From: a virus
Length of the DNA: 44,553 nt
Virus genome (UHGV): UHGV-0048026
Strand: one strand, 5' to 3'
Shown here: positions 28,619-30,399 of the stretch, one piece after another
How positions within the stretch are numbered: the stretch's first letter is position 1
Layout of the letters: every line of letters starts with the position of its first letter
Notes under the pieces: generated by a model
Databases searched by the model: none
What the model was told of the DNA's origin: nothing
The model's input: the letters and a program-made list of their open reading frames with translations, nothing else
Program-made: the position numbers and the translations under genes

Positions 28619-28875
28619 GTCTTTTTCCTTTTCTGGTTAACGTGACATACCAATAACTCTTGTCTAAAAAGCCAGCAAGCTGAAAGACCGGTATTCGCAA
28701 CCACCAGCGCATTTAACGTCCTGTACCGCTTTTCGGGCACAAAAAAAACCGCTCATCGGCGGGTTTAAGCTGTGTGACGTAGTAATCACTCTTAACATCA
28801 TATTTAAATTTTTACGTACGTAAACCTGTACGTATAACTTTATATTATAAAAATGCAACAACTATAATATTTTAG

Positions 28876-30070
28876 GGAAGGTGCGAATAAGCGGGGAAAT
28901 TCTTCTCGGCTGACTCAGTCATTTCATTTCTTCATGTTTGAGCCGATTTTTTCTCCCGTAAATGCCTTGAATCAGCCTATTTAGACCGTTTCTTCGCCAT
29001 TTAAGGCGTTATCCCCAGTTTTTAGTGAGATCTCTCCCACTGACGTATCATTTGGTCCACCCGAAACAGGTTGGCCAGGGTGAATAACATCGCCAGTTGG
29101 TTATCGTTTTTCAGCAGCCCCTTGTATCTGGCTTTCACGAAGCCGAACTGCCGCTTGATGATGCGAAACGGGTGCTCTACCTTGGCACGGATGCTGGCTT
29201 TCATGTATTCGATGTTGATGGCCGTTTTGTTCTTGCGCGGATGCTGCTTCAAGGTTTTTACCTTGCCGGGACGCTCGGCGATCAGCCAGTCCACATCCAC
29301 CTCGGCCAGCTCCTCGCGCTGTGGCGCTCCTTGGTAGCCGGCATCGGCTGAGACAAATTGCTCCTCTCCATGAAGCAGATTACCCAGCTGATTGAGGTCA
29401 TGCTCGTTGGCCGCGGTGGTGACTAGGCTGTGGGTCAGGCCACTCTTGGCATCGACACCAATGTGGGCCTTCATGCCAAAGTGCCACTGATTGCCTTTCT
29501 TGGTCTGATGCATCTCCGGATCGCGTTGCTGCTCTTTGTTCTTGGTAGAGCTGGGTGCCTCAATGATGGTGGCATCCACCAAAGTGCCTTGGGTCATCAT
29601 GACGCCTGCTTCGGCCAGCCAGCGATTGATGGTCTTGAACAATTGACGGGCCAGTTGATGCTGCTCGAGCAGGTGGCGGAAATTCATGATGGTGGTGCGA
29701 TCCGGCAGGGCGCTATCCAGGGATAATCGGGCAAACAGGCGCATGGAGGCGATTTCGTACAGGGCATCTTCCATGGCACCGTCGCTCAGGTTGTACCAAT
29801 GCTGCATGCAGTGAATACGCAGCATGGTCTCCAGCGGATAGGGCCGTCGGCCATTGCCCGCCTTGGGATAAAACGGCTCGATGACAGCGGTCATATTCTG
29901 CCATGGCAGAATCTGCTCCATGCGGGAGAGGAAAATCTCTTTTCGGGTCTGACGGCGCTTAGTGCTGAATTCACTATCGGCGAAGGTGAGTTGATGGCTC
30001 ATGATGTCCCTCTGGGATGCGCTCCGGATGAATATGATGATCTCATATCAGGAACTTGTTCGCACCTTCC
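28876..30070 (-). mobile_element. IS5 insertion sequence, intact (1195 bp)
   Basis: 16-bp terminal inverted repeats GGAAGGTGCGAATAAG (28876-28891) and CTTGTTCGCACCTTCC (30055-30070); flanked by 4-bp direct duplication TTAG (28872-28875 and 30071-30074). Confidence 0.95.
29022..30002 (-). CDS. insH: IS5 transposase InsH
   Basis: 326-aa ORF ([35 protein letters not shown]...), matches IS5 transposase as recalled. Confidence 0.95.
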
Positions 30071-30220
30071 TTAGATATTTTAGATATTTTAGATATTTTA
30101 GATATTTTAGATATTTTAGATATTTTAGATATTTTAGATATTTTAGATATTTTAGATGTTTTAGATGTTTTAGATGTTTTAGATGTTTTAGATGTTTTAG
30201 ATATTTTAGATATTTTAGAT
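30071..30220. repeat. 9-bp tandem repeat array, about 16.5 copies (TTAGATATT x9, TTAGATGTT x5, TTAGATATT x2, partial)
   Basis: perfect head-to-tail 9-mers read directly from sequence; first unit supplies the IS5 target duplication; array ends about 180 bp upstream of porin ATG. Confidence 0.95.
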
Positions 30221-30399
30221 AAATACTGCATTGAAAATTATCACCAATATTTAACACCACACATAAATGTGATATTGATCACACTATAAACCCTTAAATA
30301 AACCCCATATCTTGAAATAACAGTACCGATTAGATGTATATTTAAGTTGCAGCGACATCATTTTTTAATAATAGTTCCCAAAAGGACTAAGGATTCATA

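Follow-up and report, generated by a model that had tools for sequence, protein, structure and literature searches.

Does an insertion sequence (IS) lodged between the porin gene and the late genes of a lambda-like prophage alter the expression of either? The question is raised by UHGV-0048026, a virus genome of 44,553 nucleotides that was analyzed over its full length (the window), in which an IS5-family element occupies positions 28876-30070. The whole window corresponds to positions 2122844-2167396 of Escherichia coli SE11, and the region 28300-30700 is 100% identical to that genome (NC_011415.1) over 100% of its length. The prophage is the lambda-like PP_SE11-5, with yecE as its integration site (PMC2608844). 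The SE11 genome paper reports IS totals and prophage coordinates only (PMC2608844), and our literature search found no publication on this insertion. We propose that an ISKpn26-type element moved recently, by simple transposition, into a TTAG (YTAR) site of a 9-bp tandem array upstream of the late promoter pR', and that the event was near-neutral. We consider this account probable.

The element is intact and 1195 bp long, and lies on the minus strand (left inverted repeat, IRL, to right inverted repeat, IRR). Its borders are marked by the terminal repeats, GGAAGGTGCGAATAAG at 28876-28891 and, as the reverse complement, GGAAGGTGCGAACAAG at 30055-30070, and the element is annotated in RefSeq. 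The 16-bp inverted repeats had been described as perfectly recognizable; they are present, but match at 15 of 16 positions, which is the usual IS5 mismatch. Both the ends, of the form GGAAGGTGCGAA(T/C)AAG (15/16 complementary), and the length of about 1195 bp are those of the IS5 group. The transposase gene ins5A (insH; 29022-30002, minus strand) is uninterrupted and encodes 326 residues (RefSeq WP_000019440.1). Its product matches the Pfam domains DDE_Tnp_1 (4.5e-35) and, at the N-terminus, DUF772 (3.3e-21), as found in IS5-type enzymes.

The original prediction named the element IS5. The family assignment stands, but the element is not canonical IS5. It is 94.6% identical to IS5B of E. coli K-12 and likewise 94.6% identical to IS5 of P1, and near-identity to the canonical IS5 of K-12 or lambda KH100 was not found. 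RefSeq labels it 'IS5-like element ISKpn26 family', and it is best named an ISKpn26-type IS5 isoform. Sixteen of the 65 differences from IS5B fall in the first 98 bp, which hold the ins5A promoter and leader, and none in the last 177 bp. These 177 bp (28876-29052, minus strand) are the IB region at the 3' end of the element, which includes IRR, A-tracts and an integration host factor (IHF) site (TTCAAGGCATTT, about 28960-28972). The IB region is identical to K-12 IS5 at 177 of 177 bases and faces the late promoter.

The element is flanked by two copies of TTAG. The left copy is at 28872-28875. The right copy, at 30071-30074, is also the first four bases of the array, as read from the sequence. 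Because the array contains TTAG every 9 bp, the flanking copies alone are weak evidence of a target duplication. The IS-free sequence was therefore constructed and searched. Removal of the IS and one TTAG yields CAACTATAATATTTTAGATATTTTAG..., with the precise-excision junction ...AATATTTTAGATATT..., and this is found as an exact empty site in E. coli UMNF18 and in the IMG/VR contig L017. The UMNF18 site has a single TTAG. Thus the flanking TTAG copies are a genuine target duplication and do not stem from the repeat itself, and such a 4-bp duplication of a YTAR target, matched by an empty site elsewhere, is in keeping with the IS5 group. The original prediction had called for comparison with an IS-free allele; at the sequence level, UMNF18 carries the empty site. 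Its description of an intact element with a 326-residue transposase and TTAG flanks, placed at the array edge in a divergent intergenic region about 330 bp from the porin ATG, is borne out by the borders, the domains and the empty site, and the distance to the ATG at 30400 is 329 bp.

The array (30071-30221) consists of 16.8 copies of the 9-bp unit TTAGATATT with a 98% match (Tandem Repeats Finder). The units are ordered as nine with ATATT, five variants with ATGTT (TTAGATGTT), two with ATATT and a partial unit, and the IS is located at the first of them. It is a variable-number repeat, known only from SE11 and from UMNF18, which has 2.8 copies. The metagenome scans revealed no further empty-site or expanded-array alleles; the scan of viral contigs returned the UMNF18-type allele only, and the scan of species representatives for at least four array units returned only unrelated AT-rich repeats in Helicobacter, Gardnerella and Paenibacillus. 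The IS-free SE11 spacer contains 19 YTAR sites in 286 bp, compared to 5.7 per kb over the window. Since the array supplies such dense YTAR sites, an IS5-type insertion in the spacer is unsurprising. RefSeq annotates a 77-residue 'hypothetical protein' across this region (WP_000457920.1; 30056-30289, plus strand), which begins within the IS end and reads LDILDILDIL... through the array. It is almost certainly an annotation artefact of the 9-bp repeat.

The IS junction is present in SE11 alone among 5,426 complete E. coli genomes. NH-21 also passed the 80% coverage threshold of this search, but it is a composite with its IS elsewhere. Many E. coli chromosomes and plasmids carry copies of the IS that are 100% identical, and the SE11 chromosome holds this copy only. 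Because the junction is confined to SE11, identical copies exist elsewhere and the chromosomal copy is single, the insertion is probably recent and strain-specific.

The original prediction had placed the IS between the late promoter and the lysis and morphogenesis genes, where it could impose polarity on late transcription. Comparative analysis points to a different arrangement. The late genes of PP_SE11-5 are on the minus strand, in the order Q, 65-residue gene, methylase, tRNA, TerB, holins, endolysin, terminase and tail genes. The late antiterminator Q (31670-32053, minus strand; 127 residues) belongs to the Q21/QuuD family (PF06530, E = 3e-54) and is homologous to Q21, matching the Q21 structures 6P18/6JNX (E = 1e-8). 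It is 91% identical to QuuD of the K-12 prophage DLP12, 85% to Q of PhiR40_1 and 48% to Q of P27. In phage 21, the cassette used by this type of Q is ordered as -35, Q-binding element, -10, start, pause element and a terminator ending 50 nt after the start (curated record; Yin et al., 10.1101/651190).

A sequence that resembles such a cassette is found on the minus strand directly downstream of the IS (GGTTTACGTACGTAAAAATTTAAATATGATGTTAAGAGTGATTACTACGTCACACAGCTTAAACCCGCCGATGAGCGGTTTTTTTT). The putative pR' (28797-28824, minus strand), identified by promoter scan and conservation, has a -35 hexamer TTTACG (28824-28819), a 16-bp spacer and a -10 hexamer TATGAT (28802-28797). The predicted leader of about 50 nt (28741-28793, minus strand) contains a first hairpin and the putative terminator tR' (CCGC-CGATGA-GCGG followed by T8). 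The 65-residue gene (28421-28618, minus strand) would be the first gene of the late unit after tR'; it is conserved with L23 of P27 and in Stx phages. The block GGTTTACGTACGTAAAAA..TATGMTGTTAAGAGTGRTTACT..hairpin-T6-8 is present in all 14 collected loci with a QuuD-type Q, always beyond the cargo that follows Q and directly ahead of the late genes. The cargo is a porin in SE11, UMNF18, DLP12, the second SE11 prophage PP_SE11-1 and others, a 447-bp opposite-strand open reading frame (ORF) in PhiR40_1, and L22 (409 residues) in P27. In DLP12 and PP_SE11-1 the block is just upstream of the holin gene essD. The cargo between Q and the promoter measures 0.5-1.8 kb, and 2.8 kb in SE11 with the IS. 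By comparison, then, a promoter with a terminator within about 50 nt stands ahead of the late genes and co-occurs with this Q type; what differs from the Q21 arrangement is that pR' does not directly follow Q, with cargo intervening in SE11, UMNF18, DLP12, PhiR40_1 and P27. We infer from this comparison that pR' and tR' occupy about 28824-28741, with the porin module as cargo that was inserted between the Q gene and its promoter.

Conservation among the alleles begins at GGTTTACG (28826), and the sequence upstream is unrelated between them. The predicted pR' transcript folds into a small hairpin and a GC hairpin followed by U6-8, with compensatory differences between alleles. The first hairpin (28776-28788, minus strand) pairs GUGAU with GUCAC in SE11, and GUGGU with GCCAC or GUGGU with GUCAC elsewhere. 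This compensatory change suggests that the leader RNA structure is maintained. Phage Ayreon, which has a different Q, shares homology from the terminator onward only, and the site is annotated 'terminator' there. A search of the leader region against Rfam returned no match. The leader is also unlikely to be a homologue of the Stx-phage sRNA StxS, which is processed to 74 nt from a pR' transcript of more than 170 nt, versus about 50 nt here.

Two other positions for the late promoter were considered and rejected. The first is the 187-bp gap between the Q stop and the porin stop. It contains only porin terminators, is conserved only among porin-bearing alleles, and is not conserved with PhiR40_1 or P27 despite their related Q. 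One of these is the porin intrinsic terminator (31621-31648, plus strand; GGGGCG...CGCCCC followed by T6), itself conserved among porin-bearing alleles only. The second is a perfect TATAAT at 28849-28844 (minus strand), which as a -10 hexamer would put the IS at about -38. It was rejected because DLP12, PhiR40_1 and other alleles do not share this segment and conservation starts only at 28826.

A perfect 14-bp palindrome, TTTACGTACGTAAA (28824-28811, minus strand), overlaps the -35 hexamer of the putative pR'. It is shared with loci L006, L023 and L007-L012. Those of the compared alleles that have a QuuD-like Q keep the palindrome, whereas PhiR40_1 and P27 have an imperfect version or another sequence in its place. 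A role as the Q-binding element or as an operator for an unknown dimeric factor is possible, although the palindrome bears no resemblance to the 8-bp direct repeats of phage 21.

In the proposed account, one ISKpn26-type IS5-family element entered a TTAG (YTAR) target in the first unit of an AT-rich array. The array lies between two divergent promoters, that of the cargo porin and the putative Q21/QuuD-type pR' with a short leader and tR'. The sequences show directly which parts are present, where they end and that they are intact, together with the empty site and the restriction of the junction to SE11; the placement of pR'-tR' and the near-neutrality are inferences. Because the IS lies upstream of the putative pR', it would be outside the late transcript, with the pR'-tR' block downstream of it, and polarity on the late genes would not be expected. 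The insertion leaves several parts undisturbed: the Q gene, the putative pR' core together with some 50 bp of its native upstream DNA, tR', the array, a site resembling the CRP consensus, the porin core promoter and the porin ORF. Little or no change in function is the most likely outcome. The main argument for near-neutrality is that the spacer tolerates wholesale replacement in natural alleles. From the pR' block to the porin -35, it measures 150-286 bp among alleles and is 70-80% A+T, and its sequences are essentially unrelated between allele families. The spacer allele of MB06231 (L007, about 1670-1820) has its own tandem repeat of about 20 bp, with about five copies by eye (ATATATTTTAGACATTTCAT...), and the spacer between porin and pR' seems prone to repeat formation in more than one lineage.

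Several points weigh against this account. pR' was placed by comparing sequences and by its likeness to the phage 21 arrangement. Scanning for consensus promoters gave 5 hits, no more than in shuffled sequence (6.8 +/- 2.6). A clear 8-bp direct-repeat Q-binding element like that of phage 21 was not seen between -35 and -10: the pR' spacer TACGTAAAAATTTAAA has no clear direct repeat, and a TAAGAGT resembles the phage 21 pause element TAAGCTG but is in a different register. The IB end, identical to the segment that activates glpFK, faces pR' in the activating orientation at a comparable distance. Finally, relief of silencing of the bgl type does not depend on orientation (PMC2753651).

The alternative to which we give the most weight, though we consider it unlikely, is that the IS acts as an upstream enhancer of pR'. 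It would lead to more terminated leader in the lysogen, and to stronger late expression or tR' read-through after induction. The orientation of the element would allow this. ins5A is co-directional with the putative pR', so that the 3' (IB) end adjoins that promoter and the ins5A-promoter (IRL) end is turned toward the array and the porin. Measured from the last base at the IB end (28876), the distance is 51 bp to the -35 hexamer of pR' and about 86 bp to the predicted start, both of which lie downstream. In glpFK, the activating insertion lies at about -126.5. In flhDC, activating insertions are found at -99.5 and -169.5 (PMC2753651). In the glpFK, flhDC and fucAO activations the ins5A promoter is distal and the IS5 3' end proximal to the activated promoter, and activation of glpFK requires the 177-bp IB segment, which carries the IHF site and the bend and suffices by itself, and depends on helical phase (PMC2753651). 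An upstream position with an intact, proximal IB end is found relative to pR'; it is not found relative to the porin, which faces the IRL end. Because the IB end, identical to that of K-12 IS5 and carrying the IHF site and a permanent bend, faces pR', the candidate target of the known IS5 enhancer route would be pR' and not the porin, if there is any effect. The SE11 tR' stem is also short, and the predicted leader fold of -11.6 kcal/mol is among the weaker ones (alleles range from -9.2 to -24.0). However, the phase-dependent activation of glpFK was shown for crp-deficient or otherwise silent promoters, and the SE11 distance differs and is estimated only. Furthermore, about 50 bp of native upstream DNA, the region of an UP element, is kept, and pR' promoters are usually constitutive, with control at termination.

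A more elaborate version, which we regard as improbable, combines this with a role for the array. Here the IB end would raise pR' output and tR' read-through in the lysogen, and the array would serve both as a magnet for IS targeting and as a length-variable porin spacer. If true, the methylase, tRNA, TerB and lysis genes downstream would be expressed in a manner that depends on the IS, or the induction burst would be altered. A phage late promoter would then be seen for the first time to respond to IS5 as a 'mobile enhancer'.

The other possible target is the porin. The porin gene (30400-31482, plus strand) encodes an NmpC/Lc/OmpC-like protein of 360 residues ending in ...VYQF. The original prediction that its ORF is intact is correct: Porin_1 is matched over profile positions 1-337 of 337 (Pfam, E = 1e-149), and along its entire length (100%) the protein is 90-92.5% identical to porins from isolated lambdoid phages. 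It has the features of a general porin, namely a full-length domain, a signal peptide and a C-terminal aromatic residue, with no truncation compared to orthologues. Upstream of the porin promoter, a putative CRP site, TGTGAtattgaTCACA (30268-30283, plus strand), matches TGTGA-N6-TCACA perfectly; among alleles its right half-site is conserved and its left half is variable. The putative core promoter is TTGAAA-19-TATATT (30312-30342, plus strand), although the exact hexamers are uncertain and the consensus promoter scan missed it. The block CTTGAAAT...GATTAGATGxATATTT is conserved in every porin allele.

An effect of the IS on porin expression could arise by relief of H-NS-type silencing, as in bgl, or by loss of a distal promoter or activating sequence. 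We judge this unlikely as well, and place it behind an action on pR'. Activation of bgl by IS5 is independent of position and orientation and involves H-NS (PMC2753651), and the SE11 spacer region is 80% A+T. The best promoter hit in the region, TTTATA-18-TATAAT (28839-28868, plus strand), would start transcription at the insertion point, toward the porin, but other alleles lack this site, and hits of this kind are no commoner than in shuffles. The original suggestion that the IS may activate or silence the porin is weakened by the arrangement of the locus. The porin keeps its CRP-like site, the conserved core block and the array in full. The IS ends 197 bp from the CRP-like site, about 205 bp from its center and about 275 bp from the likely porin start. 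The end that faces the porin is IRL and not the activating IB end, and the scan for an outward hybrid promoter at IRL toward the porin gave zero consensus hits. As noted for the spacer, natural alleles exchange it whole for unrelated sequence.

It is very improbable that the IS lies within the late unit, between a Q-linked promoter and the lysis and morphogenesis genes, with polar effects on late transcription: pR' directly follows Q in phage 21 and lambda, and on the map the IS does stand between the Q gene and the lysis genes, but the gap after Q holds porin terminators, the promoter-leader-terminator block linked to the Q type is downstream of the IS, and even with pR' beside Q, the Q-modified RNA polymerase passes terminators (10.1101/651190).

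Related modules in other genomes have also been hit by IS elements. In K-12, nmpC is split near its 3' end by IS5B, as the original prediction stated, with a TTAG target duplication. AF14 has an IS at porin codon 4 (duplication TTAA), and STK39-3-E has one at the 3' end of Q (duplication CTAA). The IS is upstream of Q in NH-21, replaces Q in 720632 and is in the methylase gene in AST205. In 23CRST009 it is just after tR', with no duplication and a truncated prophage. In TUM1881, IS903B truncates the porin. The target duplications seen (TTAG, TTAA and CTAA) all fit YTAR. IS5 and ISKpn26 elements have hit the Q-porin-pR' module independently and repeatedly, in some cases with IS-bounded deletions.

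SE11 itself contains a second, IS-free module of this type. In PP_SE11-1 (609000-658900; locus L023, 15799-18060), QuuD, an intact porin of 365 residues, pR' and essD are found in that order. Compared to the window, its Q is 91% identical, its porin is 87% identical and its pR' block is the same. Given the similarity of Q and the shared pR' block, either prophage could activate the late promoter of the other.

Two further observations concern other parts of PP_SE11-5. The replication-initiator-like gene (34584-35408, minus strand) is flagged as a pseudogene in RefSeq, with its C-terminus missing, and the alignment of its product with the UMNF18 homologue stops near residue 248 of 274. Since this gene is flagged as C-terminally incomplete, the prophage may be replication-defective irrespective of the IS. 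In addition, a second tRNA-like sequence (26970-27042, minus strand) adjoins tRNA-Gly. It scores 43.7 bits with the Rfam tRNA model, is called neither by ARAGORN nor by RefSeq, and is 92% identical to the annotated tRNA-Thr of UMNF18, with several changes in the D arm. Because of this identity combined with the altered D arm, it is probably a decaying tRNA-Thr gene.

The insertion itself is an ordinary event, specific to one commensal strain of serotype O152:H28 and phylogroup B1; it is already annotated in RefSeq, and its effect is most likely small. Of wider interest is the location of the late cassette. In prophages with a QuuD/Q21-type Q, DLP12 among them, the promoter and terminator for the late genes appear to be located past the porin cargo rather than beside Q, which changes the interpretation of insertions in this region. 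SE11 also offers a natural test pair, with two QuuD-porin-pR' modules, one with an IB end upstream of pR' and one without.

Compared to the phage 21 cassette, the SE11 locus has the same Q protein family and what appears to be the same sequence of promoter, leader of about 50 nt and intrinsic terminator ahead of the late genes. The phage 21 cassette begins 7 bp after the Q stop. In SE11, Q and the putative pR' are about 2.8 kb apart, separated by the porin, the array and the IS. Unlike phage 21, with its 8-bp direct repeats, SE11 has no obvious direct-repeat Q-binding element, and has the 14-bp palindrome over the -35 hexamer instead.

Compared to the insertions that activate glpFK, flhDC, fucAO and bgl, the SE11 element is likewise upstream of a promoter and carries an identical IB segment. 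Relative to the putative pR', its 3' end is proximal, as in glpFK, flhDC and fucAO; relative to the porin, its orientation is opposite to theirs. Unlike the activation cases, the IS is at about -86 of pR', and no phenotype or selection is known for the SE11 insertion. In fucAO, a flanking CRP site, at -61.5 relative to the ins5A start, makes the ins5A promoter active, and transcription from it crosses the element (PMC11894529). A similar CRP 'fusion promoter' for ins5A is unlikely in SE11, where about 245 bp separate the CRP-like site from the expected start of ins5A and 16 positions in the promoter region of this gene differ from K-12 IS5.

The closest parallel in arrangement is nmpC::IS5 of DLP12. 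Both loci have a QuuD-type Q followed by an antisense porin and then the pR' block, and both have an insertion of the same IS family with the same TTAG duplication. In K-12, the IS5 splits and inactivates the nmpC ORF near its 3' end, whereas in SE11 the porin ORF is intact and the IS is in the spacer between the porin and pR'. The K-12 copy is canonical IS5, and the SE11 copy is of the 94.6% identical ISKpn26 type. Like Lc of phage PA-2 and NmpC, the SE11 porin is a general porin of full length, and its gene is situated between Q and the lysis region, antisense to the late genes. It differs from these relatives in being 87-92% identical to the other phage porins compared, and in its spacer with the 9-bp array, which is shared only with UMNF18. 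Lc is reportedly subject to catabolite repression, with which the CRP-consensus site upstream of the SE11 porin would fit.

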